Positions 826-32,000 of a stretch of 32,000 bases of DNA are shown piece after piece (position 1 is the first letter of the stretch; each line of letters opens with the position of its first letter). Below the pieces are notes generated by a model. It did no database searches, was not told the origin of the DNA, and saw nothing but the letters and a program-made list of their open reading frames with translations. The position numbers were made by a program, and so were the translations under genes. Origin of the DNA: an uncultured bacterium (GTDB lineage: Bacteria > Auribacterota > JACPWU01); NCBI GenBank assembly GCA_964640155.1, contig CAZXEQ010000007.1:153048-185047 (forward strand). The letters are read 5' to 3'.

Positions 826-836
826 GTTTAGAGAAA

Positions 837-2150: not shown

Positions 2151-2581
2151 AAAAAATAATCATTGGGAGTCTTATTGCTTTTGCATTGTTGGTCAGTTTA
2201 ATTGGACTTTTTTATCATGCGAGCAACCTTCATGATAAAGTAAGGACACTTAAATCTGAATATGACGCGTTTGTGAAATTAAAAGAAAATTCTCAAAAGG
2301 GAATTCCGAAAAATAATCAAACCCTTCTGAAATCTATCGAAGAGCTTGTTAAGACCTTAGAGCTTAAAAACAATCTAGAGTCTTTAAAATCGATTAATGA
2401 TTGCATTGAAATTTCACTAAAAGATCTTTCTCAAGAAAGCTTAATCGAATTTTTAAAAAAGCTAGATGCTTTACCACCTTTTCGTATTCTTAAGTCAAAT
2501 TTTGCTAGCAGCTCTTCGGGAAAGTTAGGCCTCAATCTTGTGCTTGCCCCGCCCACCGTACAAGCAGAGGCAACATCATGA
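2147..2581 (+). CDS. Small bitopic membrane protein, putative GspM-like T2SS component
   Basis: 144 aa with an N-terminal TM helix (IIIGSLIAFALLVSLIGLFY) and a soluble domain. It shares a 4-nt ATGA overlap with the upstream gene. The call rests on synteny and topology only. Confidence 0.35.
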   Translation: MKKIIIGSLIAFALLVSLIGLFYHASNLHDKVRTLKSEYDAFVKLKENSQKGIPKNNQTLLKSIEELVKTLELKNNLESLKSINDCIEISLKDLSQESLIEFLKKLDALPPFRILKSNFASSSSGKLGLNLVLAPPTVQAEATS

Positions 2582-3687
2582 ACATTACCATGGATGTTCA
2601 GCCTCTTTTAGGAAGAAAGAGTGGGGTGGGTTTTTACATTTGGGGTTTGATTCATGCCCTTTCTCAAATAGACTCAAAAAATCAATATCATTTGGCTTTT
2701 TTTGATTTTAAAAATCGACAACATGTGATTCCTGATTTGGCGGCCAATTTTAAAAAGAGAAAAAGTGTTATTCCTGGCCGAATGGTAAGTGCCTTATGGA
2801 AAAAACTAAAATTTCCATCTTATGACTTTTTCTTTGGTAAAGCGGATTTATTTCATTTCCCTAATTTTATTATTCGACCGATTCGCGAGGGAAAGACGAT
2901 TGCAACCATTCACGATGTATCCTTTCTTCGTTTTCCTCAATATACAGAACCCAAAAATCTAAAGTTTTTAACAGATAAGATAGAAGAGACTGTGTTGCGA
3001 GCGAATCAAATCATTGTTGATTCCGAGTTTACAAAATCAGAGCTTCTTTCTTTTTTTAAAATAGATTCCACTCGTGTTCATTCTATTCATCTGGGCATTG
3101 ATTCTCATTTTCAACCGTCCTTAAATCACGAGGCCTCAAAAAAGATTCTTTTTGTTGGGACCATTGAGCCTCGCAAAAATCTCACTCATTTGTTCAAAGC
3201 ATTTGATCTTTTTACAGAAAGAATGAAAGAACAAAATTATCAATTGATCATTGCTGGTATGAAAGGGTGGCTTTATGAAGAAACGTTCAGAAGCTTAGAA
3301 AAATGTAAATCAAAAGAGAGAATACATTTGTTGAACTATGTTGATGATCATCAACTGATTCAACTCTATCAAGAAGCAGATCTCTTCGTTTATCCTTCAT
3401 TTTATGAAGGATTTGGTTTGCCTCCTTTAGAAGCGATGGCTTCTGGAGTGCCTGTTATTGCAGCAAAAAGGGGGTCTTTAGGTGAAGTTTTGGGCGAGGC
3501 TCCTGCATGGATAGAGCCTGAAGATATAGAAGGTCTTGCTAAGAATATGGAAAGGGTTCTTTGCGATCAAGAGTATAAACAGATGCTTATTGCAAAAGGT
3601 CTCTTACAAGCTAAAAAGTTTAATTGGAAAACAACAGCTGAGCAGACGCTGGATGTTTATTATAAAGCCATGGGGCTTTCATTATGA
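2578..3687 (+). CDS. Glycosyltransferase family 4 (GT-B, retaining)
   Basis: Carries an E-x7-E type motif (PSFYEGFGLPPLEAMASGVPVIA). At 369 aa the size is typical. It has a 4-nt overlap with the upstream gene. Confidence 0.85.
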   Translation: MNITMDVQPLLGRKSGVGFYIWGLIHALSQIDSKNQYHLAFFDFKNRQHVIPDLAANFKKRKSVIPGRMVSALWKKLKFPSYDFFFGKADLFHFPNFIIRPIREGKTIATIHDVSFLRFPQYTEPKNLKFLTDKIEETVLRANQIIVDSEFTKSELLSFFKIDSTRVHSIHLGIDSHFQPSLNHEASKKILFVGTIEPRKNLTHLFKAFDLFTERMKEQNYQLIIAGMKGWLYEETFRSLEKCKSKERIHLLNYVDDHQLIQLYQEADLFVYPSFYEGFGLPPLEAMASGVPVIAAKRGSLGEVLGEAPAWIEPEDIEGLAKNMERVLCDQEYKQMLIAKGLLQAKKFNWKTTAEQTLDVYYKAMGLSL

Positions 3688-4832
3688 GAATTGCGATTGA
3701 TGCACGGTGGATTACAAAAGAATCTTCTGGTATTGGGCAATATACAACGAATTTGATTCGTTATTTATCAAAACATTCAAATCATTCTAATACGTATTTC
3801 CTCATTTTTTCTAAAAGAGAGATTTTCGAGAAACTTAGTTTAGAATTAAACTTAAAAGAAAAAGAAAATTTTAAACCTATTTTTATATCTTACGATGTTT
3901 TCTCTTTCTTAGGACAAATCAAGCTTCCTTTTCTTTTGAATCGAATGAAAATAGATTTATTTCACTCTACCAATTTTATGATTCCTCTTTTTAGTCTTAA
4001 AACAAAAGTAGTAGCAACCATACATGATCTTATTCCTTTTCTTTTTCCGGAATATGCACCACGATCTAAAAAAAGTAGATTTTATTTTTTTTATAGTTTC
4101 CTGATGCAATGTATTATTAAAAAAGTGAATCATATTTTTGTGGATTCTAAAAACTCTTATAATGATTTGATTCAAAATTTTAAAAAAGCGGACAAGAAAA
4201 CAAGTATTTTGACATTTGGTATTGATCCTTCTTTTAATTCTCAAGAAACATCCCAACCCCAATTTTCAATTCAGAAAAAATTGTCGCTTGAAGGCCCTTT
4301 TATTCTTTATGTTGGAAGGCAAGACCCTTATAAAAACTTAATTCATCTTGTGAAAGTTTTTAAAGAGCTCTCAAAAGATTTTGACAATCTCTCTTTGGTT
4401 ATTGCTGGATCTAGAGATGAAAGGTACCCAGAGCTTTGGCAAACGATTTCAGCATTAAAACTTGATTCGAAGGTTATTCTCACAGGTTTTCTTTCGCAAA
4501 ACGACCTTGTTCATCTCTATAAAAAAGCTTCTGTTTTAGCTTTGCCGAGCCGATATGAAGGTTTTGGATTACCGCTGCTTGAAGCCATGTCCTGTGGAGT
4601 TCCTGTGGTCGCCTCCAACGCAGCATCTATTCCAGAGATTGTAGGAGATGCGGGGATACTATTGGATGCCGATGATGTTGGAAAATGGGTTGAATCTATC
4701 TCTTGTCTATTGAAGGACGAGTCACTTCGACTTAAGCTCATTGAAAAGGGCTATCAAAGACTTTCTCTTTTTAATTGGGAAAAGACCATTGAACAACTTT
4801 TATTAGAGTATGAAAAAATATGTCAAAGATGA
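3684..4832 (+). CDS. Glycosyltransferase family 4
   Basis: Carries the motif PSRYEGFGLPLLEAMSCGVPVVAS and a GT-B C-terminal domain. It has a 4-nt overlap with the upstream GT gene. Confidence 0.85.
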   Translation: MRIAIDARWITKESSGIGQYTTNLIRYLSKHSNHSNTYFLIFSKREIFEKLSLELNLKEKENFKPIFISYDVFSFLGQIKLPFLLNRMKIDLFHSTNFMIPLFSLKTKVVATIHDLIPFLFPEYAPRSKKSRFYFFYSFLMQCIIKKVNHIFVDSKNSYNDLIQNFKKADKKTSILTFGIDPSFNSQETSQPQFSIQKKLSLEGPFILYVGRQDPYKNLIHLVKVFKELSKDFDNLSLVIAGSRDERYPELWQTISALKLDSKVILTGFLSQNDLVHLYKKASVLALPSRYEGFGLPLLEAMSCGVPVVASNAASIPEIVGDAGILLDADDVGKWVESISCLLKDESLRLKLIEKGYQRLSLFNWEKTIEQLLLEYEKICQR

Positions 4833-5923
4833 AAATGGCTTTTATTCATGACTGGCTCAATGGAATGAGGGGAGGGGAGAAATGCCTAGAAACACTTCTA
4901 GAAATTTTCCCTAAAACGCCTATTTTTACACTTTTATATCAGCAAGAGAAAGTATCTGAGTTGATTCGTCAATCTCCTATCACTTCGTCTTGGATTGGTA
5001 AATTGCCCTTTTGGCGTGAAAAATATCGGTATTATTTACCTCTTTTCCCCTTTGCGATTAAAAGTTTTGATCTTAGTTCATATGAAGCGATTTTAAGCAT
5101 CAGTCATTGCGCCGCGAAAGCGGTTCGCATTCCACCCAAAAGCCTTCACATTTGTTATTGTCTGACGCCTATGCGATATTTATGGGGTTTCTACGAGGAA
5201 TATTTTGGAAAAGGTCCCTATCATTGGCTAAAACATTTAGGCCTTCAACCTCTTCTTTCTTTTTTAAAAAAGTGGGATTTTGAAACTGCAAAAAATGTTC
5301 ATCACTTTATTGCAATTTCAAACTATGTGGCTGAAAGAATAAAAAAAATCTATGGGAGAGAGTCTAGGGTTATTTATCCTCCTGTAGATACTCACAAATA
5401 TTTCTATGATGAAAGCGAAACAAAAGAGAATTATTTTTTAATTGCATCTGCTCTTGTGCCCTATAAGCGAATTGATATTGCAATTGAAGCATTTAACAAA
5501 CTTAAACAACCGTTAAAAATTATTGGAGCAGGTACAGAGCTCAATCGTCTTAAAGCAAAAGCAGGTCCCACCATAGAATTCTTAGGATGGCAGTCTGACG
5601 TTAAGCTTCGAGAATATTATTCTAAGGCGAAAGCATTCATTTTCCCTTCAGAAGAGGATTTTGGAATTACTCCTTTGGAAGCTCAGGCTTGTGGTACGCC
5701 CGTTATTGCATACGGTAAAGGAGGGGCTTTAGAGACCATTCAGGATCAAAAAACGGGAATTTTCTTTAATCAGCAACATGAAGAATCTCTGATCGAAGCT
5801 ATTGAAAAATTTAACAACATCTCCTATGATAGGCGAGCCTTGCGCCAAAATGCGCTTCGTTTTCGAAAAGAAGTATTTCAAGAACAGTTCAAATCTTTTC
5901 TGAAAGAAAAGGGAATAGAATAA
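4820..5923 (+). CDS. Glycosyltransferase family 4
   Basis: Carries the motif PSEEDFGITPLEAQACGTPVIAYGKGGALE. An alternative in-frame start at 4829 would give an ATGA overlap with the preceding stop at 4830-4832. Confidence 0.8.
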   Translation: MSKMKMAFIHDWLNGMRGGEKCLETLLEIFPKTPIFTLLYQQEKVSELIRQSPITSSWIGKLPFWREKYRYYLPLFPFAIKSFDLSSYEAILSISHCAAKAVRIPPKSLHICYCLTPMRYLWGFYEEYFGKGPYHWLKHLGLQPLLSFLKKWDFETAKNVHHFIAISNYVAERIKKIYGRESRVIYPPVDTHKYFYDESETKENYFLIASALVPYKRIDIAIEAFNKLKQPLKIIGAGTELNRLKAKAGPTIEFLGWQSDVKLREYYSKAKAFIFPSEEDFGITPLEAQACGTPVIAYGKGGALETIQDQKTGIFFNQQHEESLIEAIEKFNNISYDRRALRQNALRFRKEVFQEQFKSFLKEKGIE

Positions 5924-5948
5924 TTTTAGAACTATTTTAGGGAAAAAT

Positions 5949-7364
5949 ATGGCTCGTCAGCGTTCAGTTGATTTTTGGCTTCTTGCTCTTCAAATTTTAT
6001 TAGATTCTATTTTGCTTTATCTTTCCTTTTGTTTTGCTTTTTTTATTCGCTTTCATTCAGGCTTGTTTCAAGTCACTCGAGGAATGCCTTCATTTATTTC
6101 ATATGCGGAAGTTTTTCCGGCTGCTACGGTTGTCATGCTTTTGGTCTTTAAATCTATGGGATTGTATGTTAAAAAAGAATTTGGAAAGGAATTACAGCTT
6201 TTTCAAACCATCAAAGCTGTATCTTTAGGAACGTTTATTTTAACTTCTCTTACCTTCCTTTATCGCGAAATTTCTTACTCACGACTCCTTGTGGTTATAG
6301 CTTGGTTTTTAGGCGCATTCATGATCGTCTTGGGAAGATTTTTAATGCGTTTTATTAGAAAAAATATTTATCTTGTTTTAAAACTTCATAAAAATTTTCT
6401 TATTATTGGAGCTGGTGAATGCTCAAAGATTATTATGCAAAGTTTGCTTAAAGTTGATCCTGATCTTTATAAAGTTGTAGGAGTTCTAAACCACATAGAG
6501 CAAGTAGATTCATCTTTGACAGACTACAAAATATCATCCACTCTTCCTATTTTAGGATCTGTTGATCAACTGCCTGCATTACTGACATCACAAAAAATAG
6601 ATGAAGTGATACTCACTGTACCAGGCTTAGAACATAAGAAAATTGTTGAAATTATTTTGGCTTGTGAAAAGGAGATGGTGAATTTTAGAATGGTTCCTGA
6701 TATCTTTGAGATCTTAACAACACAAGTTGAATTAGAAAATTTTCATGGAATTACACTTTTAGGGCTTAAGCAATTTCCTTTAGAGAAAGCGATCAATCGT
6801 TTTTATAAGAGAACAGTTGATGTTCTGGGAGCAAGTTTTGGATTGATTCTTTTATCGCCCCTTTTTTTGTTGATTGGTTGTTTGATTAAAAAAGATTCGG
6901 CAGGTACCATTTTTTATACACAAGAGCGCATTGGACAAGATGGAAAACATTTTATGATGATTAAATTTCGAACCATGAGTCCTGATGCAGAGAAAAAAAC
7001 GGGACCTGTGTGGGCAAAAGAGGATGATCCACGACGTACGCGCATCGGTGCATTTTTGAGACGTTTTAATCTCGATGAGCTTCCTCAGCTTTGGAATGTT
7101 CTTAAGGCTGATATGAGTTTGGTGGGCCCCCGACCTGAAAGACCTCATTTTGTAAATGAGTTTAAGGGAAAAATTCCTAGATATATGTCACGGCATCGTA
7201 TTAAATCAGGTATGACAGGTTGGGCCCAAGTGAATGGTCTTAGAGGAAATACTTCTATTTTAGAGCGAATAAAATATGATCTGTATTATCTTGAGAACTG
7301 GTCTATCTGGTTTGATTTAAAAATTATTTTAAAAACTTTTTTTGCTCGGCAAAATGCTTATTGA
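5949..7364 (+). CDS. Polyprenyl-phosphate glycosyl-1-phosphate transferase (WbaP/PssY-like initiating sugar transferase)
   Basis: The N-terminus has multiple TM helices and the middle is Rossmann-like. The C-terminal bacterial sugar transferase signature is present (DELPQLWNVLKADMSLVGPRPERP ... GMTGWAQVNG). Confidence 0.9.
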   Translation: MARQRSVDFWLLALQILLDSILLYLSFCFAFFIRFHSGLFQVTRGMPSFISYAEVFPAATVVMLLVFKSMGLYVKKEFGKELQLFQTIKAVSLGTFILTSLTFLYREISYSRLLVVIAWFLGAFMIVLGRFLMRFIRKNIYLVLKLHKNFLIIGAGECSKIIMQSLLKVDPDLYKVVGVLNHIEQVDSSLTDYKISSTLPILGSVDQLPALLTSQKIDEVILTVPGLEHKKIVEIILACEKEMVNFRMVPDIFEILTTQVELENFHGITLLGLKQFPLEKAINRFYKRTVDVLGASFGLILLSPLFLLIGCLIKKDSAGTIFYTQERIGQDGKHFMMIKFRTMSPDAEKKTGPVWAKEDDPRRTRIGAFLRRFNLDELPQLWNVLKADMSLVGPRPERPHFVNEFKGKIPRYMSRHRIKSGMTGWAQVNGLRGNTSILERIKYDLYYLENWSIWFDLKIILKTFFARQNAY

Positions 7365-7374
7365 AAAAGGTAAT

Positions 7375-7770
7375 ATGACTAAAAGTCCTAAAAAGAAAAA
7401 CCCTGCTATTGCGTTTTTATTAGCCTATCTTTTCCCAGGGCTAGGTCATTTTTATATGGGGAAAAGGGGACTTGGATTATTTCTTTTTGTCTCAATTGTG
7501 CTCACCTATGCCATCGGGATTTCTTTAGGGGGAGGTATTCTTTGGGATGAAATGAATTTTTTAACGGTTTTGGCTTATATTGTAAAATTTTTTAACGGTT
7601 TTCCATTTTTAAGTACTTTGTTTTATCAAACTTTTTATGAGCTTTCGTTTTATTTTAATGAAATGGGAACCACTTTTATTTTAATATCAGGGGCACTCAA
7701 TTTACTGGTTATTATTCATTTGATCGAATTGTTGCTCAAAGGTAAGACAGAATGCCAAGCGAATTCATAA
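7375..7770 (+). CDS. Integral membrane protein, function unknown
   Basis: The ORF is 7342..7770. The ATG at 7375 is preceded by AAAAGG. There are three or four predicted TM helices. The N-terminal FPGLGHFYMGKRGLG motif is of the kind seen in small TM2-like membrane proteins. No function is assigned. Confidence 0.5.
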   Translation: MTKSPKKKNPAIAFLLAYLFPGLGHFYMGKRGLGLFLFVSIVLTYAIGISLGGGILWDEMNFLTVLAYIVKFFNGFPFLSTLFYQTFYELSFYFNEMGTTFILISGALNLLVIIHLIELLLKGKTECQANS

Positions 7771-7934
7771 AAAATGTTTTTCTGTTTCTTTATATTGCCT
7801 TTGTAGTTTCATTCGTATGGGTTTCTCTGACTCATGAAGGCCTTAAGAAAATCTTGCAAGAAGGAACAAAAAGTTTTTTAATCTTTGTAATTTGTGCAAT
7901 CACTTTAGGAGTCATTGTTCATTTATTGAGCTAA
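7752..7934 (+). CDS. Small two-TM membrane protein (hypothetical)
   Basis: 60 aa with two hydrophobic helices. An AAGGT sequence lies about 9 nt upstream of the ATG. It fills the gap before the tolQ-like gene. Its short length makes the call tentative. Confidence 0.35.
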   Translation: MPSEFIKNVFLFLYIAFVVSFVWVSLTHEGLKKILQEGTKSFLIFVICAITLGVIVHLLS

Positions 7935-7938
7935 TATT

Positions 7939-8634
7939 ATGGGAACTCTCATTCATTTAGATTTTGTTGGAACACTCATTATTATCATCCTTGCTCTGTT
8001 TTCCGTCTATGGTTGGGCTGTTTTCTTAAATAAAATGAAGCTTTTAAGATCTATTGATAAAAGTTCAAAAATTTTCTTAGAACGTTTTCGAAAAAGTGAA
8101 ATGGATCCTTTGGGTTTTTATCGACAGAATTACGCAAAAGTAGAAGATCCTTCGCCTTTGGTCAAAATTTATAAAGTGGGTTGCCATGAATTAGAAGCCG
8201 TTTTAAAAACAAATGAAACGATTGCTCCTGGAGCGCAAAGAAGTGGGCCTGCTAAAATGTCTATTTTAGAATTAGAGAGCATTCAAAAGATTCTTCAGCG
8301 TACGACTTCTGAAGAAATGATGGCTCTTGAGAAATCTTTGGCTGTTCTCGCAACAGCTTCTTCGGTAGGGCCTCTCTTAGGCCTTTTAGGCACAGTATGG
8401 GGCATTATGGATGCATTTGTGGGGATTGGAAAGAAGGGCACAGCTAGCATCAGTGCAGTTGCTCCAGGTGTGGCTGTGGCTTTGATTACAACAGTTATTG
8501 GTCTTCTAGTTGCAATTCCAGCTCTTATTGCTTATAACTTTTTTCAAAGCCGTTTCAATACCATCGCTATTAAGACTGATAATTTTGCCTCTGAATTTTT
8601 ATCTGCAGTTGAGAAGAAACACGTTCTACGCTAG
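7939..8634 (+). CDS. MotA/TolQ/ExbB family proton-channel protein
   Basis: Three TM segments and the family signature SSVGPLLGLLGTVWGIMDAF. An ExbD/TolR gene follows. Confidence 0.85.
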   Translation: MGTLIHLDFVGTLIIIILALFSVYGWAVFLNKMKLLRSIDKSSKIFLERFRKSEMDPLGFYRQNYAKVEDPSPLVKIYKVGCHELEAVLKTNETIAPGAQRSGPAKMSILELESIQKILQRTTSEEMMALEKSLAVLATASSVGPLLGLLGTVWGIMDAFVGIGKKGTASISAVAPGVAVALITTVIGLLVAIPALIAYNFFQSRFNTIAIKTDNFASEFLSAVEKKHVLR

Positions 8635-8652
8635 GATTCAGGATAGCTCCAC

Positions 8653-9063
8653 ATGATATCTACAAAGCAGCGCTCCAAAAAGATTGTCAGCGATATCAAC
8701 ATGACCAATTTGGTCGATGTCACCATGACTTTGCTGATCGTTTTTATTCTATTGGCTCCGGTGATTGAAACAGGAATTGATTTAAAATTGCCTCAAGCCT
8801 CTTCACAAAAGGTAGATACGCCACAAGAAGTAACAAGTCTTAGCGTTTCAAAAGAGGGAGTTATTTTCTGGAATTCAGAAATGATTAGTTTAGAAGAACT
8901 TCCAAATCGTATTGAAACAGAAAAAGAAAAAAAACCAAATCTAGCAATTTTATTGCGAGGTGATACCAGCACTTCTTATGGTCAAATGGTTAAGGTTTTA
9001 GATATTCTTCGCAATGAAGGAATTGATCAAATTGACATTGCAACTGAAGCTGAGACAAAATAA
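8653..9063 (+). CDS. ExbD/TolR family biopolymer transport protein
   Basis: 136 aa with the N-terminal INMTNLVDVTMTLLIVFIL anchor typical of ExbD/TolR and a periplasmic domain (ILLRGDTSTSYGQMVKVLDIL). Confidence 0.85.
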   Translation: MISTKQRSKKIVSDINMTNLVDVTMTLLIVFILLAPVIETGIDLKLPQASSQKVDTPQEVTSLSVSKEGVIFWNSEMISLEELPNRIETEKEKKPNLAILLRGDTSTSYGQMVKVLDILRNEGIDQIDIATEAETK

Positions 9064-9078
9064 AATTTTTTTTGAATC

Positions 9079-9114
9079 AATTGTTAACCTTTTTTTTATT
9101 GCAGGTTAACAATT
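9079..9114. promoter_or_regulatory. Perfect inverted repeat AATTGTTAACC-N14-GGTTAACAATT, a candidate BirA operator (bioO)
   Basis: The left arm (9079-9089) is the exact reverse complement of the right arm (9104-9114). The 14-nt spacer is T-rich. The right arm abuts the ATG at 9115 of the operon containing bioF and bioA. The architecture matches the TTGTWAACC-N14-16-GGTTWACAA BirA site as I recall it. Confidence 0.6.
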
Positions 9115-9897
9115 ATGCCCTCTCAAATTGTTTTGATTACAGGAGTGTCAGGGGGACTGGGCATTGAGTTAGCGTTAGCTTTTGCAAATAGGGGAGACAT
9201 CGTTTTAGGCGTTTATCATCAAAATCATATTGCTATTACAAAGTTAGAAGAGAACATTAAGAGAATAGGAGGTTTTTGTCAGTTTTATCAATGCGACATT
9301 CGTCAGGAGAAAGAGGTAAAAAAGCTTTTTCTTGCAATTGCATCGCGTTGGGGAAAATTGGATGGACTGATCAATAATGCAGGCATTATTCGGGATCAGA
9401 ATATTTTAAAAATGTCTTACGAAGATTGGGATGAAGTTATCCAAGTTAATTTAACAGGTTCTTTTTTTTGTTTGAAAGAAGCTATTTCTTTACTCACTAA
9501 AGAACAATTAAAAAAATCAAAATTCATTATCAATATTGTTTCGCTTCGAGGACTTACTGGAAATGAGGGACAAACAAATTATTCTGCGTCAAAAGCCGGA
9601 TTGATTGCTTTAACACAAACTGCTGCATTGGAGTTGAATCCTTTTGGAATTAAAGTTAATGCAGTTATTCCAGGACTTTTAGAGACGCAAATGAGCAAAG
9701 GAAGTAAGGCACTCAAAGACTTTTCAGAGCGTTTGCCATCTGATATTGCTCAATGGATTGTAAAAATAGCTTCTCTCCAAGAAACCACAGGTCAATTATT
9801 TATTTTAGAAAATCGAGTGACTAAATATGCAAATTTGCCAATATCCTTCTCGAGTTGTAATTACGGGGATGGGAATTTCAACAGCGATTGGAACTAA
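9115..9897 (+). CDS. Short-chain dehydrogenase/reductase, 3-oxoacyl-ACP reductase (FabG)-like
   Basis: Cofactor motif TGVSGGLGIELA, NNAG motif, and catalytic S...YSASK. The usual C-terminal GQ..VDGG is divergent (GQLFILENR). The last 71 nt overlap the next gene. Confidence 0.8.
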   Translation: MPSQIVLITGVSGGLGIELALAFANRGDIVLGVYHQNHIAITKLEENIKRIGGFCQFYQCDIRQEKEVKKLFLAIASRWGKLDGLINNAGIIRDQNILKMSYEDWDEVIQVNLTGSFFCLKEAISLLTKEQLKKSKFIINIVSLRGLTGNEGQTNYSASKAGLIALTQTAALELNPFGIKVNAVIPGLLETQMSKGSKALKDFSERLPSDIAQWIVKIASLQETTGQLFILENRVTKYANLPISFSSCNYGDGNFNSDWN

Positions 9898-10990
9898 GAT
9901 TTCCAAAGCTTGGGAAGCACTTGAAAAAGGAGAATCTGGAATAAAAACGCTTTCTTTTGATCAGCTCAAAATTCCAGCTGGATATGTCTCAAGTCTATCT
10001 TCTGAAAATAAAAAAGCTGAATTGCTTGCGTTGAATGCATCTGAAGAAGCCTTAAAAGATTCTGGTCTTGAAATAAAGAATATCCCCTCTGAAAGAATTG
10101 GAATTTGTGTGAGTTCTAGCAAGGGGGATTTTGAAGATATTCTAAACCCTACAAATGGATTTTTTTTGGAGAAAATTAATTCTAGACTGGTTCAATATTA
10201 TCAAACTTCAGGACCTTCTCTTAATCTTGTGGGGGCTTGTTCAACGGGTCTTCAATCTGTCTCATGGGGAACACGCTGGATACAAGAAAATAAATGTGAC
10301 ATAGTTTTTGCTGGAGCCAGTGACTCGGTTCTTCATCCCTTTTTGATTCATGCCTATGAACAGGCAGGCATTCTAGCGAAAATTGACTCTAAATCTCCCC
10401 AGAAAAATATTAAACCTTTTGATCGAGATAGAACTGGAACCGTTTTGGGCGAGGGCAGCGGGGTGGTGATTCTGGAGTCTTTAGAATTAGCTCAAAAAAG
10501 AGGCGCGAAGATTTATGGAGAAATTTTGTCCTCCTATTACGGAATTGACCCTTTTCATCCGATTCGTATGAATCCAGATGGATCTAGTGTGGCACAAATC
10601 TTTCAACATCTTTTTCAAAAATCTCAATATTCTATGGATAATGTTGACTTGATTCATCTTCATGGTACAGGTACAGTTTGGAATGATTTGATAGAAACAC
10701 GTGGAATTAAAAGTTTTTTTAAAGAGCAGGCAAAAAAAATTTCATTTTGTGCCACCAAACCTTTTACAGGACATTTAATTGGGGCCAGTGGCGTTGTAGA
10801 ACTTATTTTTAGTCTATTAGCTATGAAGCATGGGTTTGTTCCCCCCACACTTAATTTGGAAGAAACAGACCCTGAATGCGATCTTGATTATACCCCTGGT
10901 TATGGAAAAGAGAAAACCATACGGTCTTTGATTGGCTTGGCATATGGTTTTGGTGGTCATATCTCAGGAATTCTTGTGAGAAAGATATAA
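9827..10990 (+). CDS. Beta-ketoacyl-ACP synthase, KAS I/II (FabF/FabB)-like
   Basis: N-terminal RVVITGMG. The active-site Cys lies in GACSTGLQS. Both His motifs are present (HLHGTGT and KPFTGHLIGASG). At 387 aa it is slightly shorter than a canonical FabF. Confidence 0.85.
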   Translation: MQICQYPSRVVITGMGISTAIGTKISKAWEALEKGESGIKTLSFDQLKIPAGYVSSLSSENKKAELLALNASEEALKDSGLEIKNIPSERIGICVSSSKGDFEDILNPTNGFFLEKINSRLVQYYQTSGPSLNLVGACSTGLQSVSWGTRWIQENKCDIVFAGASDSVLHPFLIHAYEQAGILAKIDSKSPQKNIKPFDRDRTGTVLGEGSGVVILESLELAQKRGAKIYGEILSSYYGIDPFHPIRMNPDGSSVAQIFQHLFQKSQYSMDNVDLIHLHGTGTVWNDLIETRGIKSFFKEQAKKISFCATKPFTGHLIGASGVVELIFSLLAMKHGFVPPTLNLEETDPECDLDYTPGYGKEKTIRSLIGLAYGFGGHISGILVRKI

Positions 10991-10991
10991 T

Positions 10992-12179
10992 ATGAGACAT
11001 TTTGATTTTTTAAATCAAGAATTGATGGATATTCACACTAAAAATCGCTTTCGCGAATTCCAAACGATTACATCAAATTCCGGACCATCTATTACTCTGG
11101 GGAATAAAAAACTTATTAATTTTGGATCAAATAATTATTTAGGACTTGCACAAAACTTCCAAGTGAAATGGTCCTCTATTATAAGCACATGGCAGTTTGG
11201 AACAGGTTCGGGAGCTTCTAGGCTTATCTCTGGCAATACAACCGCTCATGACGCTTTAGAACGCATGATTGCTTCATTTAAAGGGGCTGAATCAGCTCTT
11301 GTTTATCCTACAGGTTATATGGCCAATTTAGGGGTAATTTCTGCTTTAATCGAACCAGAAGATGTTGTCATTCTAGATCGTCTTAATCATGCTAGCATCG
11401 TTGATGCCTGTCTTCTTTCCAAAGCGAAAATATGGGTTTATCCTCATAAAAATCTTGAACGTCTCAACGAAGTTCTCGAAAATGCTAAAAAAAGGAATTT
11501 TCGTCGAAAATGGGTCATTACAGAAAGTCTTTTTAGTATGGATGGGGATATTGCTCCATTGCCAGAAATTCTAAAAATTTGTGAAAACCATCAGGCCTTT
11601 CTTATGATTGACGAAGCTCATGCTACAGGAGTTCTTGGAGAAAATGGAAGAGGAGCATTAGAATACTTTGACATTGATCCTAAAAGAGTTTCTATCATCA
11701 TGGGAACTTTAAGTAAAGCATTGGGATCTTTAGGTGGATTTATTGCGGGGGAAAAAGAACTTATTGATTACTTGAGAAATCGATCTAAAACTTTTATTTA
11801 TACAACAGGACTTCCTTCTTCAGTTTGCGCAGGATCTCTTAAATCAATTCAGTTGATTGTAAAATCAAATCAATTAGTTAAAAAACTTAAAGCAAATATT
11901 GATTATTTTTATGAGGGATTAACAAAAGTTGGCATGGATTGCCCAAAAGAAAAAACACCCATTATCCCTATCATTACAGGAACTGAGTTGGATACGATGA
12001 AAGCTTCTCAAAAATTAAAAGAAGAAGGTTTTTTTGTCCCAGGTATCCGTCCGCCTACGGTTCCAGAGGGAGAAGGGCGATTACGCATCAGTTTAATGGC
12101 AACACATACAAGACAACAGATGGACGGAGTATTGGGAACAATAAAATCTATTTTTAAAAATCATGAAATCACAAAATAA
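10992..12179 (+). CDS. bioF: 8-amino-7-oxononanoate synthase (alpha-oxoamine synthase family)
   Basis: The PLP-lysine region GTLSKALGSLGGF, DEAHATG, and a Gly-rich GSGASRLISG motif are present. The gene lies immediately upstream of bioA. Confidence 0.8.
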   Translation: MRHFDFLNQELMDIHTKNRFREFQTITSNSGPSITLGNKKLINFGSNNYLGLAQNFQVKWSSIISTWQFGTGSGASRLISGNTTAHDALERMIASFKGAESALVYPTGYMANLGVISALIEPEDVVILDRLNHASIVDACLLSKAKIWVYPHKNLERLNEVLENAKKRNFRRKWVITESLFSMDGDIAPLPEILKICENHQAFLMIDEAHATGVLGENGRGALEYFDIDPKRVSIIMGTLSKALGSLGGFIAGEKELIDYLRNRSKTFIYTTGLPSSVCAGSLKSIQLIVKSNQLVKKLKANIDYFYEGLTKVGMDCPKEKTPIIPIITGTELDTMKASQKLKEEGFFVPGIRPPTVPEGEGRLRISLMATHTRQQMDGVLGTIKSIFKNHEITK

Positions 12180-13522: not shown

Positions 13523-14575
13523 TTAATCAAATACGGCTAAACTCACTCCAAAAGAGCTGTGCCCATCTGAATATCCAAAATCAAATCCGAATCCTGTGTA
13601 GGGTCCTGACTCATAAACATAATATCCATCTACATAGGCATAGGAACTTCCACATGTATCAGCCCAAGAAACAAGTTGATCCCAACCCCAAGGTTGATAG
13701 GTTGTGTAAGAAGCATATCCATAGGGGTAGTAGTAATAACTGGAATATTCATTCGCGAGTTTTTCTCTTTCTAACTCGAGTTTTTCCTGTTCCAAAATAT
13801 ACTCATTTTTAGCAGCAATATCTTGATCTGCTGATGCTCTAGCTGCTTTTTGTTGTTCAATGCTGGGGACTTTAGGGCCTGCAACGCTTTCACCTACAGG
13901 ACTCCAACCTGGAGGAGGGGCAATTGCAACTTTTGCATTTCCACGAGCCTTAAGATAGTCTTCTCTTGAGATCTTCATTCCTTGAGATTCTTCCGTCATC
14001 CCCAATTTTTCATACAATTGAGCAATAACTTGTGCTCCTTTATCGCTTTGAGTTTGATCCACGATTGTTTTAGCTACAGACAAAACACCTGCAGCACCAT
14101 CATGATCTCCTATTTGAATAAGCCCATTAGCTGCTTCTGTCATTCCAATCCAATCATTCTGTGATTGAGCAGTTTGTTCGGCTAAATGAAAAGCTTGGTT
14201 GCTGCTTTCTTTTTTTCCTTGATCAGGTGGTAAACTTGCAAACGCGTATCCAACCGCAATCGCAATTCTCCAATCCTGCTTTTGCTCGGCCATTTGAAAA
14301 GCTTGATCAAATAAACCTGATGCCTGAGCTGGTTCGCCAAGTTTTAAAAGAGCATTCCCAGCATCCAAACATCCTCTTGGCTCACTTGCTTGAGCAGCAA
14401 ATTGACCTGCTTCTTGAAAATGTTGAATAGCTTCAGCTTTGTTTTTTGCCTTAATGGCTTGAAAACCTTTTGCAAAAGAATCATGCATGGATCGAGTGGG
14501 ATCTTCCGAAAAACCTCGAGTTGCGATTAAGCTTATCATTAGAATAAAAAGTGCATATCGTTTCATATTTTTCAC
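13523..14575 (-). CDS. Secreted repeat protein (TPR/Sel1-like degenerate repeats) with a Tyr/Gly/aromatic-rich C-terminal region
   Basis: Signal-peptide-like N-terminus (MKRYALFILMISLIATRGFSEDP) and a good SD (AAGGTG) upstream on the minus strand. Helical repeats of about 35-40 aa recur (e.g. FDQAFQMAEQKQDWRIAIAVG and NQAFHLAEQTAQSQNDWIGMTEA). A coiled EQEKLELEREKL segment follows. The tail reads YSSYYYYPYGYASYTTYQPWGW...GFGFDFGY. Confidence 0.6.
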   Translation of the reverse strand: MKNMKRYALFILMISLIATRGFSEDPTRSMHDSFAKGFQAIKAKNKAEAIQHFQEAGQFAAQASEPRGCLDAGNALLKLGEPAQASGLFDQAFQMAEQKQDWRIAIAVGYAFASLPPDQGKKESSNQAFHLAEQTAQSQNDWIGMTEAANGLIQIGDHDGAAGVLSVAKTIVDQTQSDKGAQVIAQLYEKLGMTEESQGMKISREDYLKARGNAKVAIAPPPGWSPVGESVAGPKVPSIEQQKAARASADQDIAAKNEYILEQEKLELEREKLANEYSSYYYYPYGYASYTTYQPWGWDQLVSWADTCGSSYAYVDGYYVYESGPYTGFGFDFGYSDGHSSFGVSLAVFD

Positions 14576-16498: not shown

Positions 16499-19474
<2,976 letters not shown>

Positions 19475-19500
19475 TAGGCCGAGCGTGACAATCTAGATGG

Positions 19501-20082
19501 TTATTCATAGATCTGAATAATTTTTTTTAAATCAAAAGTATCTCCCCAAATTTTTTGGCCATAATGTCGGAAAAAATCAATCATATATTTTTTCATCACA
19601 AATAATTGTTCCGATCGAGGACTTTTGCTAAGGGCTTTGCGCCAAAGTTGGGCTAGTTTAATGGGATCAAAAGGATTCTTTTTGAAAACTTCGATCATGT
19701 CTTGGCAATCTGATACCAGATAGCGTCCAATCTTTCCAATACTCCAGTACAATGGATGAGCGAGATAAACTTTAATTTCATTAAAAGTTTTATAGAGAAT
19801 AATATTTTTGTCAAAATCAAGGAAACTTAATGAAGACCATCGATCAACATTGTCACTAAATTGAGCCTGAACTCCTGTTTGATGGACCACTTTAGCAACA
19901 GCTTCGGAAAACGCATTGAATGAACACGCCTCTTTAAATTGAAATTGAAAATCGACATCGAGTGTTGGACGAACTCCTCCAAAAAGAAGTGCAGCAGCTC
20001 CTCCAATAAGAATAATTTCTGTCGGATGTTTCCACTCGTTAGAAAGCTTTTCAAAAAAAACATCAATATCATTCTTTTTCAT
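19501..20082 (-). CDS. Minimal nucleotidyltransferase-fold protein (pol-beta superfamily, AbiEii/DUF6036-like); putative toxin or effector
   Basis: The N-terminal motif IILIGGAAALLFGGVRPTLDVDF fits hGG-x(n)-D-x-D of minimal NTases and the GG[ST]AL...R.T.D[LV]DF pattern of AbiEii-type proteins. Length is 193 aa. It shares an ATGA overlap with the upstream HTH gene. Confidence 0.55.
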   Translation of the reverse strand: MKKNDIDVFFEKLSNEWKHPTEIILIGGAAALLFGGVRPTLDVDFQFQFKEACSFNAFSEAVAKVVHQTGVQAQFSDNVDRWSSLSFLDFDKNIILYKTFNEIKVYLAHPLYWSIGKIGRYLVSDCQDMIEVFKKNPFDPIKLAQLWRKALSKSPRSEQLFVMKKYMIDFFRHYGQKIWGDTFDLKKIIQIYE

Positions 20083-20561
20083 GAAATGTATTTCCAGAGA
20101 TGTTTATCAATTCGATCTAATAAATGTGTAATCAATTTTTGAGAGTAAAGCGTCTTTAATTCACTCCATCTTTTTGCTACGAAGGTTCTTCGATGTGGAT
20201 AGAAGAGAGGACGTGGTACATTTACCGCACGCAATTTAGTGAGAACAAGTAATTCTATTTCATCACACAACTTGTTTTCTTCATCAGAAAGTTCTCTTTT
20301 TCCTGTAATTATTTGCAATGCAATTTTATCCAGTTCATGTCGATTTAAGTTTTCAAGAGGTGAGTGATGAGGCTCTAAATTTACCCAAGAAATTTTTAAA
20401 GCCTCACAAATACGATTTAAAGTACGGACCGTAATGTCTCGTTTTTGGTTTTCAATAGCAGAAATGGCTGATTGGGGGAGTCCACATATTTTTCCAAGCT
20501 CGACTTGGCTTAAATGAGATTTCAATCGATTAAGTTTAAGCTCTAATGAGATCGAATTCAT
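20079..20561 (-). CDS. XRE-family helix-turn-helix protein with an uncharacterised C-terminal domain; putative antitoxin or regulator
   Basis: N-terminal HTH: LSQVELGKICGLPQSAISAIENQKRDITVRTLNRICEAL. The C-terminal extension of about 95 aa has no recognisable motif. It is the first gene of a two-gene minus-strand operon. Confidence 0.75.
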   Translation of the reverse strand: MNSISLELKLNRLKSHLSQVELGKICGLPQSAISAIENQKRDITVRTLNRICEALKISWVNLEPHHSPLENLNRHELDKIALQIITGKRELSDEENKLCDEIELLVLTKLRAVNVPRPLFYPHRRTFVAKRWSELKTLYSQKLITHLLDRIDKHLWKYIS

Positions 20562-20652
20562 GATTCTATTATATTAAATATTATATATTTGTCAAAAAAT
20601 AAATTAAATAAAAATAATGTTATTTCTGTATTATATTTATATGGAGAAAGTT

Positions 20653-22272
20653 ATGACTATTTTAATGGTTGGCTTGATTCTTGGAAAATATGATGTATAT
20701 TACTCAGGACCAATGAAAACCATGCTGGATATTCTTATTTTCTATTTTATTCTTCAGAGCTCATTCCTTCAGGCAAGTGAGACTGACAAAAGAGAATTTG
20801 ATTTATCAAAATCTTCCATCACCCAAAAGACTTTTACTGCACACAGTCATCTTCAAATCCAAAAGAATTACTTACTCCTTTCAAAAATTCCTGTTCCGTC
20901 TCTTTTCAATGTATCACTCGTATTGAATGTATTTGCAAATGTGCACGCAGAAGAGCAAAGAGCTTTAGCAGAAGCTTATGTACATGCATTTCAGGACTGG
21001 GTCATCAAAACAGGGCAGGGTCAAAGTACTGAAGCAATTTCAGAAAAAACACTTCGTTTAATCGATGAGTGGGAAAGCAAAAGAAAGACAGAACAAGGAC
21101 AATTATCAGAACGTGAACAAAGAATTTTTTCTATGCTTAGAGAAGCAAGTTCTATAAAAGTAACGGAGCCCGCCGCGAGGCTTACTGAAAATGATATTCA
21201 ACTATTATGTTGTCTTGGCCTTTTGCATGTAGATGCTATCTTTTTGTTTATTAATGATTTCTATTTTGAATATCAAGATTTGGTTGGAAATTTAGTTAAA
21301 ACATCTAAAAATAATGAAGAAATTCAAAGATGGAAGAATGCATGGAATACTAAGTTAGAGGAAAGTCGTCTGCAATGGGTTTTTAATCAAGACTTAGGAT
21401 TAATGTATAATCCTTCCGTTGCTATAGCTTATGATCCTAAAGAAATTAAAACAAAAAGAGTTGGTCCCTTTGTCTATTTTGAAATTCCAGATATGCCAAA
21501 CAGACGTTCTCGTCGTATACATCGAGAAAGTTGCATTCGTTCTGATTTTTTAGATGTTTTAGAGGAGGACACAATTATGGATGATTCTATTAATAGTATT
21601 CTTGTCGTGACTCGAAGATGGCCTCGAGTAACTTATGATTCTCTTCTAATCAGCAAAGAATGGAAACCTCAAAAATTAATACGAGACCTTATTCGTTCTC
21701 AATTAAAATGGGCTAGTCGAAATGCCATTTTGTGTTTTCATCGGGGGAATCGATTTGTTGACCATCAGCATTCTCATCTTTATCCTGTGGGTTCTTTCCC
21801 AATAGCAGAGCTTGCTGGAAGTTTTATTTCTTCTACCTGCTTACATGGATTGGAAATAGGAAGTCTTTCGAATTATCCTGTCCACCATATTGCATTTTCG
21901 AGTTCTAACGCTGAAAATTTAGAGGAAGCAACTTTAACTATGTCTGAATTTTTAGAGGAGAAACAGATAAGATTTCACCAGCTTGTTTTTTATCATCCTC
22001 TGATCAAGAAAATAATGGTTTGTTTTGTTTTTTGGAAAGATGTTCGGGATTATCCTCTTCCTTTTACCTTTGAAACTCCAGGAGCTATTACAGTTGAAGT
22101 TCCTACCGATCTTTCAGAAGAAACCATTCGTCATCATTTAAAAGCTATTTCTGTCCCTCAAGAAACAGTCGATCGTATTCGAGATGAATTTTTGGAAAGA
22201 AGATGGAGGAGAGTTATCCCAGGCAGACAGGATGTTCCTCTTTCCTTTGAATTTTTTGAAGAAGCTGCTTAA
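20653..22272 (+). CDS. Orphan hypothetical protein (about 540 aa), possibly membrane-anchored or secreted
   Basis: The ORF is 20617..22272. The ATG at 20653 has a GGAGA SD 5 nt upstream and lies downstream of a candidate promoter (TTGTCA 20589-20594, AATAAT 20613-20618). The N-terminus is hydrophobic (MKTMLDILIFYFILQSSFLQASE). I recognise no conserved domain. Confidence 0.6.
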   Translation: MTILMVGLILGKYDVYYSGPMKTMLDILIFYFILQSSFLQASETDKREFDLSKSSITQKTFTAHSHLQIQKNYLLLSKIPVPSLFNVSLVLNVFANVHAEEQRALAEAYVHAFQDWVIKTGQGQSTEAISEKTLRLIDEWESKRKTEQGQLSEREQRIFSMLREASSIKVTEPAARLTENDIQLLCCLGLLHVDAIFLFINDFYFEYQDLVGNLVKTSKNNEEIQRWKNAWNTKLEESRLQWVFNQDLGLMYNPSVAIAYDPKEIKTKRVGPFVYFEIPDMPNRRSRRIHRESCIRSDFLDVLEEDTIMDDSINSILVVTRRWPRVTYDSLLISKEWKPQKLIRDLIRSQLKWASRNAILCFHRGNRFVDHQHSHLYPVGSFPIAELAGSFISSTCLHGLEIGSLSNYPVHHIAFSSSNAENLEEATLTMSEFLEEKQIRFHQLVFYHPLIKKIMVCFVFWKDVRDYPLPFTFETPGAITVEVPTDLSEETIRHHLKAISVPQETVDRIRDEFLERRWRRVIPGRQDVPLSFEFFEEAA

Positions 22273-22366
22273 ACTTGAGATTGTAGTAGCTCACACATCC
22301 CAAATCGTATATCTTATATAGCTAAAAATTGAATCACTCTTATTCATTACTTTGCAATGAGGTTAA

Positions 22367-23359
22367 ATGGAACGCGTTTTAAGTGGAACTCGACCGACAG
22401 ATCGTCTGCATCTAGGTAATTACGTTGGGGCAATACAAAATTGGAAAACACTACAAGATAAGCTTGGAACGGAGCTAGATCAGTGTTTTTTTATGATTGC
22501 CGACTGGCATGCCATCACGACTGAGTACGAAAATCCTAAGCAACTTCGAGAAAATATTCGCCAGGTTGCGATTGATTATTTAAGCGCCGGAATTGATCCT
22601 GAAAAATCGATACTCTTTATTCAATCTCATGTCAAAGAACATGCAGAGTTAAATCTCTTACTGGGAATGCTTACCCCGATTGCTTGGCTAGAGCGCAACC
22701 CTACTTACAAAGAACAATTGGAAGAAATTAAGGGTAAAGATATACGAACTTTTGGATTTTTAGGTTATCCTATTTTACAAGCTTCAGATATCTTGGCTTA
22801 TAAGGCAACGCTTGTTCCGGTAGGGGTGGATCAGCTTCCTCATCTGGAACTTTGCCGAGAAATGGTTCGCCGATTTAATTTTATTTATAAAAAAGAAATT
22901 TTTCCTGAACCTAAAGATTCTTTAACGAAAACGCCCAAGCTTGCGGGAATGGATGGGCGTAAAATGAGTAAGAGTTATGGAAACGCAATTTATCTTTCTG
23001 ATTCAGGATCTATTTTAGAAAAAAAAGTGATGGCCACAATCACAGATCCAGCTCGGAAAAGAAGAGCTGATAAAGGTCATCCAGAAGTTTGTACAGTTTA
23101 TTCGTATCATGAACTTTTTAGTAAACCTGAACTTGAAACTATTTCTCATGAATGTCGAGAAGCCCTACGAGGCTGCACCGACTGTAAAATGAATTTATTT
23201 AAAAATATGTCATCAGGATTAGCTCCGCTTCATGAAAAGCGAAAAGAATTGGAGTCTAAGCCTCAAAAGGTAGAAGAAATTTTAGAATCAGGAGCTATAA
23301 AGGCTCGAAAAGTGGCTCAATCAACATTGGCAGAAGTTAGAGAAACGATGGGACTATAG
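22367..23359 (+). CDS. trpS: Tryptophan-tRNA ligase
   Basis: Class I HIGH-type motif (RLHLGNYVG), KMSKS, GVDQLPHLEL, and a length of 330 aa. Confidence 0.95.
   Translation: MERVLSGTRPTDRLHLGNYVGAIQNWKTLQDKLGTELDQCFFMIADWHAITTEYENPKQLRENIRQVAIDYLSAGIDPEKSILFIQSHVKEHAELNLLLGMLTPIAWLERNPTYKEQLEEIKGKDIRTFGFLGYPILQASDILAYKATLVPVGVDQLPHLELCREMVRRFNFIYKKEIFPEPKDSLTKTPKLAGMDGRKMSKSYGNAIYLSDSGSILEKKVMATITDPARKRRADKGHPEVCTVYSYHELFSKPELETISHECREALRGCTDCKMNLFKNMSSGLAPLHEKRKELESKPQKVEEILESGAIKARKVAQSTLAEVRETMGL

Positions 23360-31528: not shown

Positions 31529-32000
<472 letters not shown>

Follow-up and report, generated by a model that had tools for sequence, protein, structure and literature searches.

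Between xerD and trpS in a 32,000-nucleotide stretch of DNA from an uncultured bacterium of the Auribacterota (contig CAZXEQ010000007.1 of GenBank assembly GCA_964640155.1; the whole stretch is called the window below) lies a three-gene accessory islet whose content differs between related strains. Two of its genes, encoding a helix-turn-helix (HTH) protein and a nucleotidyltransferase (NTase), overlap on the minus strand and diverge from a large open reading frame (ORF) on the plus strand. In its sequence features the HTH-NTase pair is a conserved, self-contained two-gene unit with toxin-antitoxin (TA)-like anatomy, and it is most likely a TA module. It is best described as a variant form of the NTase-toxin TA modules, and the large ORF as an uncharacterised HIT-fold enzyme family. 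The evidence tilts modestly toward an islet of two units that are independent of each other, a TA-like module formed by the pair and an unrelated enzyme encoded by the large ORF. The argument starts from what the analysis showed: the anatomy of the genes, their variation from genome to genome, the conserved pairing, and the folds and motifs.

The accessory character of the islet is visible in the junction between xerD (18569-19474, plus strand; Pfam Phage_integrase 9e-51 plus SAM_1) and trpS (22367-23359, plus strand; Pfam tRNA-synt_1b 1e-60) in related genomes. Three informative relatives came from scanning genomes with TrpS. One of them, L001, is the identical contig, from a sequencing run. 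L002, labelled Candidatus Auribacterota, has a TrpS 98% identical to that of the window; LigA, XerD, TrpS, ScpA and ScpB are together 96-99% identical between the two, and the flanking DNA is 89-93% identical. The TrpS of L003 is 76% identical. None of the three islet proteins is detectable in L002, where the junction holds two other overlapping minus-strand genes, one for a DUF6036 protein of 186 residues (E 1.6e-15, 57.7 bits) and the other for an upstream protein of ~200 residues with a weak HTH match. Pairwise comparison found no similarity between these two proteins and the HTH-NTase pair of the window. In L003 the junction is empty, with xerD and trpS 97 nt apart. Occupied in the window, replaced in L002 and empty in L003, the interval reads in these alignments as a genuine strain-variable islet, of the accessory kind that the initial annotation had proposed. 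Synteny upstream of trpS differs in two further genomes, L004 and L005. The empty L003 junction (9904-10000) contains a long imperfect inverted repeat (CAGAATTCAG...CTGAATTCTG), read by eye in the alignment, which is probably the xerD terminator.

Alignment of the DNA to L002 places the breakpoints at 19474/19475, directly after the xerD stop codon, and at 22245/22246. Window positions 22246-22366 are 96% identical to L002 9881-10000, though L002 lacks the large ORF. Because the second breakpoint falls 27 nt before the end of the ORF, L002 retains its last nine codons. A second collinear relic, window 22109-22127 against L002 9851-9869, matches at 18 of 19 nt and outscores 200 of 200 shuffles. 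The C-terminal ending ...EEAA is common to the large ORF (window 22249-22272) and to a stand-alone relative, P0006 (L086 9300-9323), which favours reading the 27 nt retained by L002 as a genuine remnant of the native C-terminus of the ORF. From the two relics it follows that the L002 lineage once carried the large ORF, lost it, and now has a different NTase cassette.

The cassettes would likely have been exchanged by recombination via the conserved flanks. A search for bracketing direct or inverted repeats around the islet or the cassette, for tRNA genes and for a mobility gene at the site found none. An integrative element, a Xer/dif module and a tRNA-targeted island were each considered and rejected, since bracketing repeats and tRNA genes are lacking and xerD is kept at the empty L003 junction. 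No recombination site, repeat or element-borne recombinase of the kind that marks Xer/dif modules, integron cassettes or integrative elements accompanies the islet, although an explicit search for dif-site patterns was not made. Scans of IMG/VR with the NTase alignment and the alignment of the Apa2-like domain of the large ORF gave no matches, nor did tblastn of the NTase against plasmids and phages, which leaves a phage or plasmid origin unsupported. The locus resembles small accessory and defence islets at conserved hotspots in that its junction is occupied, replaced or empty in relatives and in its TA-like cargo. It differs from them in having no integrase, transposase, flanking repeats or tRNA, in its host-like composition, and in an NTase and a large ORF that match no defence model.

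The pairing of the HTH gene (20079-20561, minus strand; 160 residues, HTH_3) with the NTase gene (19501-20082, minus strand; 193 residues) is conserved wherever the family was found. Both were identified from the ORF listing and translation, the former also from Pfam, and the stop codon of the HTH gene overlaps the start codon of the NTase gene by 4 nt (ATGA). NTase relatives are rare. A search of 5.8 billion clusters retrieved only 8, all but the source contig on short contigs. The homologues in L082, L083, L084 and L085 are 42-71% identical to the window NTase, and in all four contigs a homologous HTH_3 protein of 151-165 residues immediately precedes the NTase. The same order is kept in each, with the DNA-binding protein first and the NTase second. 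The HTH partners in L082, L084 and L085 are homologous to that of the window over their full length (46, 41 and 30% identity, respectively), and hidden Markov models (HMMs) from alignments A5 and A6 found the pair together in every locus that has either gene. None of the four contigs encodes a relative of the large ORF. The initial annotation had suggested an HTH regulator or antitoxin with an NTase effector in one module with the large ORF; the two-gene unit and its TA-like anatomy are borne out, and the inclusion of the large ORF is not. In L082 (975-3889), and likewise in L083, the cassette lies between an AbiEii-like NTase with a 54-residue partner on one side and a Fic-domain gene on the other. 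By its gene content this region is a compact cluster of what appear to be three TA-like modules.

Sequence motifs and a predicted structure relate the second protein of the pair to the pol-beta-fold nucleotidyltransferases of the DUF6036/AbiEii neighbourhood and make it a putative toxin. Pol-beta motifs I (hG[GS]) and II ([DE]h[DE]h) are present as the invariant G27G28 and T40-L-D42-V-D44, with the Thr two residues before the first Asp. The full set of residues invariant in A5 is G27, G28, G35, G36, R38, P39, T40, D42, D44, F45, W82, S83, Y112 and R120. On the minus strand, G27G28 is encoded within 19975-20004, R38-P-T40-x-D42-x-D44-F at 19948-19971 and YWSIGKIGRY at 19720-19749; K116, which lies inside this last motif, is conserved in the family together with D125 and D128. 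DUF6036 is matched by five of the eight family members at E <= 1 (best 2.6e-7) and AbiEii by three of the eight, below threshold (best 0.004). With the pol-beta motif invariant and most members matching DUF6036, the label "NTase" given from the letters alone was right in kind. The AlphaFold2 (AF2) model (pLDDT 94.2) has a sheet-containing lobe followed by a helical lobe of five C-terminal helices, and its best PDB match in Foldseek is the toxin MenT1 from the MenAT1 complex (8an5_B), aligned over the full length (E 0.014, probability 1.00, TM 0.47). The remaining fold matches either are insignificant or extend no further than the NTase core.

MenT1 is a bi-lobed tRNA nucleotidyltransferase toxin with an active site formed by T39, D41, D43, K137 and D152 (PMC10435456), and the MenT toxins, which are DUF1814/AbiEii proteins, are paired with several unrelated antitoxin types (PMC7450476, PMC10435456). 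The cassette shares several traits with the MenAT/AbiE systems (MenT1 structures 8an4 and 8an5). Its NTase is likewise a small, bi-lobed pol-beta protein encoded downstream of, and coupled to, a DNA-binding partner. Its hGG...T-x-D-x-D centre corresponds to T39, D41 and D43, and the cassette is found in TA-rich and variable regions. It is unlike them in that the NTase falls under the AbiEii/DUF1814 threshold and is closer to DUF6036, in that DUF1814 motifs III and IV are not demonstrable in it, and in its partner, which is of the Xre HTH_3 type with a C-terminal domain that is novel, and is neither a MazE-like peptide nor COG4861 nor a COG5340/AbiEi winged-helix protein. Because the resemblance, though real, is weak, the AbiEii test failed and the antitoxin is of a different kind, the cassette is not filed as a member of MenAT/AbiE. 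By analogy, it probably works like one.

Several observations weigh against this assignment and against the TA reading more generally. The window NTase itself scores 16.1 bits against Pfam DUF6036 (PF19502; E 0.0098), under the 23.6-bit threshold, and has no match to Pfam AbiEii (PF08843) at E <= 1. The fold match to MenT1 is weak by both E-value and TM score, and HMMER found no link between the NTase family and any MenT chain. Equivalents of the catalytic C-terminal Lys and Asp of motifs III and IV are tentatively placed by spacing only. Neither PADLOC nor NCBIfam has a model for the NTase. With 8 relatives, the co-occurrence statistics are thin, and toxicity and enzymatic activity, like the TA reading itself, are predictions from anatomy, folds and context.

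There is a small but real chance that the pair is a regulated enzyme and not a TA module at all, with an Xre repressor in control of an NTase whose target is a protein or a small molecule (an antibiotic, for instance, as with ANT enzymes). ANT(2'')-Ia is among the full-length fold matches (TM 0.43, E 1.3), and the only PDB sequence match, a weak one, is 5uvd, a "nucleotidyltransferase-like protein". Moreover, toxicity of the pair is a prediction and DUF6036 is uncharacterised; a literature search for this family found no paper. Set against a simple regulated enzyme are several features typical of TA modules: the 4-nt overlap, the conserved pairing with an HTH protein whose C-terminal extension co-evolves, the TA-cluster context in L082 and L083, and the strain-level swap for a cassette that has diverged but is built in the same way. 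In addition, a proven toxin is the best fold match, and the T-x-D-x-D pattern agrees with MenT1. A TA module remains the most likely identity of the pair.

The first protein of this module would be the antitoxin and autorepressor, a putative role suggested by its sequence. An N-terminal Xre/Cro-type HTH occupies residues ~7-62 (HTH_3 E 1.4e-11), and the PDB sequence matches (HipB, restriction-modification C-proteins, PezA and SinR) are confined to the N-terminal 60-77 residues. In PADLOC the protein matches only generic HTH and controller models. Its ~95-residue C-terminal extension has no Pfam match and is shared with the partners in L082, L084 and L085 that align over their full length. A similar plan is seen in PezA of the PezAT (epsilon-zeta) system (2p5t), an antitoxin of ~160 residues in which operon repression falls to an Xre-type HTH at the N-terminus and toxin binding to a helical domain at the C-terminus. 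The sequence match to PezA spans the first 77 residues of the HTH protein; the C-terminal domains are dissimilar, and the toxin candidate here is an NTase and not a zeta kinase.

It is highly unlikely that the roles within the pair are reversed, with the NTase protective, in the manner of an MNT antitoxin, and the toxic part residing in the C-terminal domain of the HTH protein. In HEPN-MNT systems the MNT antitoxin AMPylates its toxin, and MntA antitoxins (7bxo, 6m6w and 7aer) do appear among the fold matches to the N-terminal 72-76 residues of the window NTase (probability 0.6-0.9). However, the MntA matches are confined to the NTase core, and MenT1 aligns along the entire protein. Neither the HTH protein nor its C-terminal part has a HEPN match, the R-x3-H of that protein is not conserved in the family, and a DNA-binding protein followed by an enzyme is the usual antitoxin-toxin order. 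A HEPN-MNT system proper was likewise rejected, as no HEPN domain (the Rx4-6H partner) was found in the HTH protein.

The spacer upstream of the HTH gene contains candidate signals of a regulated cassette. On the minus strand, the putative promoter and operator (20567..20595) consist of TTGACA (20595-20590), a 16-nt spacer and TATAAT (20573-20568), matching the sigma-70 consensus at 12 of 12 positions, and the palindrome TATAATATT-T-AATATAATA (20585-20567) overlaps the -10 box. The HTH start codon is at 20561, only 7 nt past the -10 box, and the predicted mRNA is therefore leaderless. TTGACA is also found ~34 nt before the HTH ATG in L082 and L084, and TTTACA in L085, so that a -35 box stands ~30-35 nt before the HTH start in all four distinct cassette contexts, the window included. 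This placement implies, as far as sequence can indicate, a conserved leaderless transcript, as for some phage repressors. Palindromes accompany it in L082, L084 and L085, and those of L084 (ACAAATATAT-N8-ATATATTTGT) and L085 (ACAAATATA-N9-TATATTTGT) are stronger than that of the window. Given the conservation of promoter and palindromes, the cassette putatively brings its own promoter plus a probable operator. Promoter-like sites in the region number 11 against 11.2 in shuffles, and since they are not enriched only the 12/12 site stands out.

Toxicity, neutralisation, autoregulation and substrates are all inferred from anatomy, folds and context, and a working model of the cassette can be drawn from them. 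The near-consensus promoter would drive a leaderless mRNA, from which the NTase would be translated in a manner coupled to the HTH gene through the ATGA overlap. The HTH N-terminal domain may repress the promoter via the palindrome that overlaps the -10 box, while the ~95-residue C-terminal domain may neutralise the NTase. Once freed, the NTase would extend an RNA 3' end with nucleotides, and the most plausible target, by analogy with the MenT toxins, would be the acceptor end of tRNA; translation would be arrested as a result.

The large ORF has a different character. It ends at 22272 and encodes 539 residues from the ATG at 20653, or 551 from the ATG at 20617. The latter is a mechanical start; the former is the better candidate because it follows a GGAGA Shine-Dalgarno sequence (20643-20647) and lies downstream of a predicted plus-strand promoter. 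This putative promoter, which together with the 5' untranslated region (UTR) covers 20589..20652, has TTGTCA at 20589-20594, an 18-nt spacer and AATAAT at 20613-20618, with 10 of 12 consensus matches. The protein divides into an orphan N-terminal part (20653..21321, or from the alternative start at 20617) and a C-terminal domain of ~316 residues (21322..22272) with a fold of the Apa2/GalT branch of the HIT superfamily.

Homologues of this protein are scarce. An exhaustive phmmer search found 32 relatives among 1.84 billion cluster representatives, a family of 33 clusters including the query. A word-indexed homology search, with the single sequence and with the A1 profile, retrieved only the ORF itself, and a metagenome scan with alignment A4 returned the L086 contig again and nothing else. 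A search of the viral models in BFVD gave only uncharacterised giant-virus proteins. The relatives align to residues ~225-540, the earliest alignment starting at residue 181 of the 551-residue form. A1 (31 sequences) has the core NRWPK..Y.SLL.SK.W.PQ.LT ... EFHR...FV.H.H.HL, in which the His motif appears in the window as H383-Q-H385-S-H387 (21763-21777); its middle His is invariant in A1 and the outer two are at least 90% conserved.

The AF2 model of the C-terminal domain is confident (pLDDT 91.3, pTM 0.89). All six of its Foldseek matches in the PDB at E < 1e-3 are chains of the yeast Ap4A phosphorylase Apa2 (4i5v, 4i5t and 4i5w), with E-values of 3e-9 to 7e-8 and TM scores of 0.49-0.57 over 308-334 columns; the next matches have E > 0.1. 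Sequence models do not reach this relationship. The domain has no Pfam match at E <= 0.1 (GDPGP1_N/C, ATP_transf and GalP_UDP_transf included), is covered by no Pfam, NCBIfam or PADLOC model, and gave nothing relevant in a profile search of the PDB. A comparison by hhalign with a GDPGP1-domain protein is weak, with a probability of 4.7%, and collinear, and runs through the His motif. With fold and His motif present and sequence models absent, the domain is taken to be a sequence family new to the GalT/Apa2 branch of the HIT superfamily. Like other members of the branch (GalT and the GDP-L-galactose and GDP-D-glucose phosphorylases), it has a two-lobed HIT fold over ~300 residues, a catalytic His motif at the same mid-domain position and an association with sugar-nucleotide enzymes. 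Unlike them, it shows only 11-14% identity and no HIT-superfamily Pfam match, is attached to an orphan N-terminal region of ~220 residues, and belongs to a rare family found mostly in giant proteins. The usual motif of the GalT/Apa2 branch is HxHxQ, and HxHxH is found in the Hint and Fhit branches; the HxHxH of the large ORF is thus atypical for its branch.

Clues to function come from the proteins in which the domain occurs. Its hosts range from 140 to 7,498 residues, the longest being an unlabelled JGI protein, and the family is concentrated in giant multi-enzyme proteins. A Pfam scan of 16 relatives found GT4 glycosyltransferase domains in 11, the "GT4-conflict" model included; others carry GNAT, APH kinase plus HD, or guanylate-kinase domains. 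Two of the GT4-bearing relatives account for PRTase and pentapeptide repeats, the PRTase being in one of them. The giant relatives with a source label come from Candidatus Omnitrophota metagenome-assembled genomes and are annotated as epimerase/dehydratase or ARMT1-like; among the unlabelled JGI relatives the annotations are CMP kinase and guanylate kinase. The stand-alone relative P0009 lies between a GT4 gene, which it overlaps, and a GT8 gene. In L091, tandem Apa2-like genes at 707-3514 and 3769-11517 encode P0002 (899 residues) and a protein of >1,950 residues. L089, a nanopore-type contig with apparent frameshifts, has the Apa2-like P0024 followed by a GDPGP1_N/C-domain protein (58-2502; 6463-9572), and ~5 kb downstream a ligA-xerD pair resembling that of the window.

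The association with glycosyltransferases makes a transferase or phosphorylase acting on nucleotide-sugars or dinucleotides the most likely identity of the large ORF; it would exchange or phosphorolyse a substrate of this type. Two points count against this proposal. A glycosyltransferase partner is lacking for the large ORF of the window, and no relative in the exhaustive phmmer search covers its first ~220 residues. Hydropathy places hydrophobic segments in this region near the N-terminus and at ~182-200 (539-residue numbering), and a match to DUF6904 there was dismissed as unsupported, scoring 22 against a threshold of 27 bits. The ORF is probably not a defence effector. The reading of the locus as a defence islet fared poorly, as a check against PADLOC-DB 2.0 gave 0 matches for the NTase and the large ORF and generic models only for the HTH protein.

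Whether the islet is one system or two depends on how far these families travel together, and independence of the cassette (19501-20595, minus strand) from the large-ORF unit (20589-22272, plus strand) would best account for their distribution. The large ORF is absent from all four other contigs with the NTase family. Conversely, its relatives have no NTase or HTH neighbour in L089, L091, L093 or the P0009 contig, and in L002 an NTase cassette is present although the large ORF has decayed. The initial annotation had pictured one regulated three-gene module with the large protein as effector or sensor, and had looked to co-occurrence of the three families elsewhere. In the loci read, about nine gene contexts, the NTase accompanies an HTH gene in every other contig and never the large ORF, the relatives of the large ORF are linked to glycosyltransferases except in L086, and co-occurrence of the NTase and large-ORF families was not seen outside the window.

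Two sets of observations go against independence. The -35 boxes of the divergent promoters overlap on opposite strands (20589-20595), with the palindrome alongside. In addition, the window, L002 and L086 each have a diverged NTase cassette directly upstream of an Apa2-like gene of the stand-alone kind, or of its relic; in L086 the stand-alone P0006 is directly preceded by a DUF6036 gene plus an 80-residue gene. This triple adjacency seems more than would be expected if the units were unrelated. These observations invite the idea that the three genes are one system, in which the HTH protein represses both divergent promoters and the NTase and Apa2-like enzyme share nucleotide chemistry; the HIT phosphorylase might, for example, take off or recycle the nucleotides that the NTase adds, or make or break down a nucleotide signal. 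Such a pairing is chemically conceivable, as RNase PH, a phosphorolytic enzyme, counteracts MenT3 (PMC7450476). Given the four NTase contigs without the ORF, the four contigs in which its relatives lack NTase or HTH neighbours, and the cassette kept in L002 while the ORF decayed, a single system seems improbable. A narrower version, a diversifying linked pair in which the HTH protein controls both promoters, the HIT phosphorylase acts on the NTase product, and the cassette is swapped between strains while the HIT gene stays, is quite improbable; if true, it would constitute an undescribed three-component nucleotide-based conflict system.

The L086 adjacency itself may reflect a shared hotspot. 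Other TA-like genes (BrnA and two DUF433 genes) are found there, along with repeats. The 3' end of mgsA/rarA (GDLGEEIRIKERLN...) at 7080-7140 is repeated at the end of the 80-residue ORF (7857-7915), and a 45-nt 5' UTR with GGAGG at 7143-7188 is repeated upstream of the DUF433 pair (9444-9487). In sequence these repeats resemble scars of insertion or duplication surrounding P0006 and the DUF6036 cassette, and together with the additional TA-like genes they make a shared hotspot sufficient to explain the adjacency. Two independent units thus retain their modest advantage as the account of the islet.

The layout of the locus largely agrees with the first description of it. The plus strand carries 28 of the 31 gene calls, the minus strand holding the two islet genes and 13523-14575, and the flanking genes that were checked are mostly housekeeping (ligA, scpA/B, pheA, DAHP synthase, tyrA, an aminotransferase and a polyprenyl synthase). 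Gene order on the plus strand is indeed broken between xerD and trpS by the minus-strand HTH-NTase pair diverging from the plus-strand ORF. The ORF of "about 540" residues and the spacer of 90 nt described there match the 539 residues and 91 nt measured from ATG 20653. That spacer (20562-20652) is very AT-rich, as had been noted. Its 12% GC is the lowest among the eight intergenic regions longer than 40 nt in the 31-gene set. The left junction of the islet (19475..19500) is 26 nt between the stop codons of the convergent xerD and NTase genes, in which a search for a terminator-like site found none. The right junction (22246..22366, plus strand) comprises the last 27 nt of the ORF (FEFFEEAA*) and 94 nt upstream of trpS.

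The claim that the segment is AT-richer than its flanks holds marginally for the segment and not for its genes. GC is 0.343 against 0.366 for the window, which is within the lowest 5% of 2.9-kb windows in a narrow range of 0.333-0.400. The GC and GC3 of each islet gene are within 1.7 standard deviations of the other genes, and codon usage in the islet is host-like, equal to that of other genes and even more host-like in the NTase gene. A foreign origin inferred from composition was accordingly rejected, GC, GC3 and codon usage all being host-like.

Two other features of the window stand apart from the islet. The minus-strand gene at 13523-14575 encodes 350 residues with no Pfam match and has the highest GC of the 31 calls (0.406, z +2.2). 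A 351-residue minus-strand ORF occupies the same relative position in L003 (4170-5225), which suggests that the gene is conserved and not accessory. The window closes, at 31529-32000, with the 5' part of a 16S rRNA gene of bacterial type (Rfam SSU_rRNA_bacteria, 403.7 bits) that is truncated by the window edge, and this accounts for the sudden rise in GC to 0.51 over the final 500 nt.

The locus offers a clean, small case of cassette replacement at a conserved junction without mobility genes. The large ORF defines a rare HIT-superfamily domain that has no Pfam model and recurs beside glycosyltransferases in giant multi-enzyme proteins, and the chemistry of this domain could help explain the products of those proteins. 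If the HTH-NTase pair is a true TA module, it would represent a new partner class for MenT/AbiEii-type toxins, an Xre HTH protein that is expressed from a leaderless mRNA and has a neutralising domain of a novel type. The pair would further provide a first functional handle on the uncharacterised DUF6036 neighbourhood, in the barely studied Candidatus Auribacterota.

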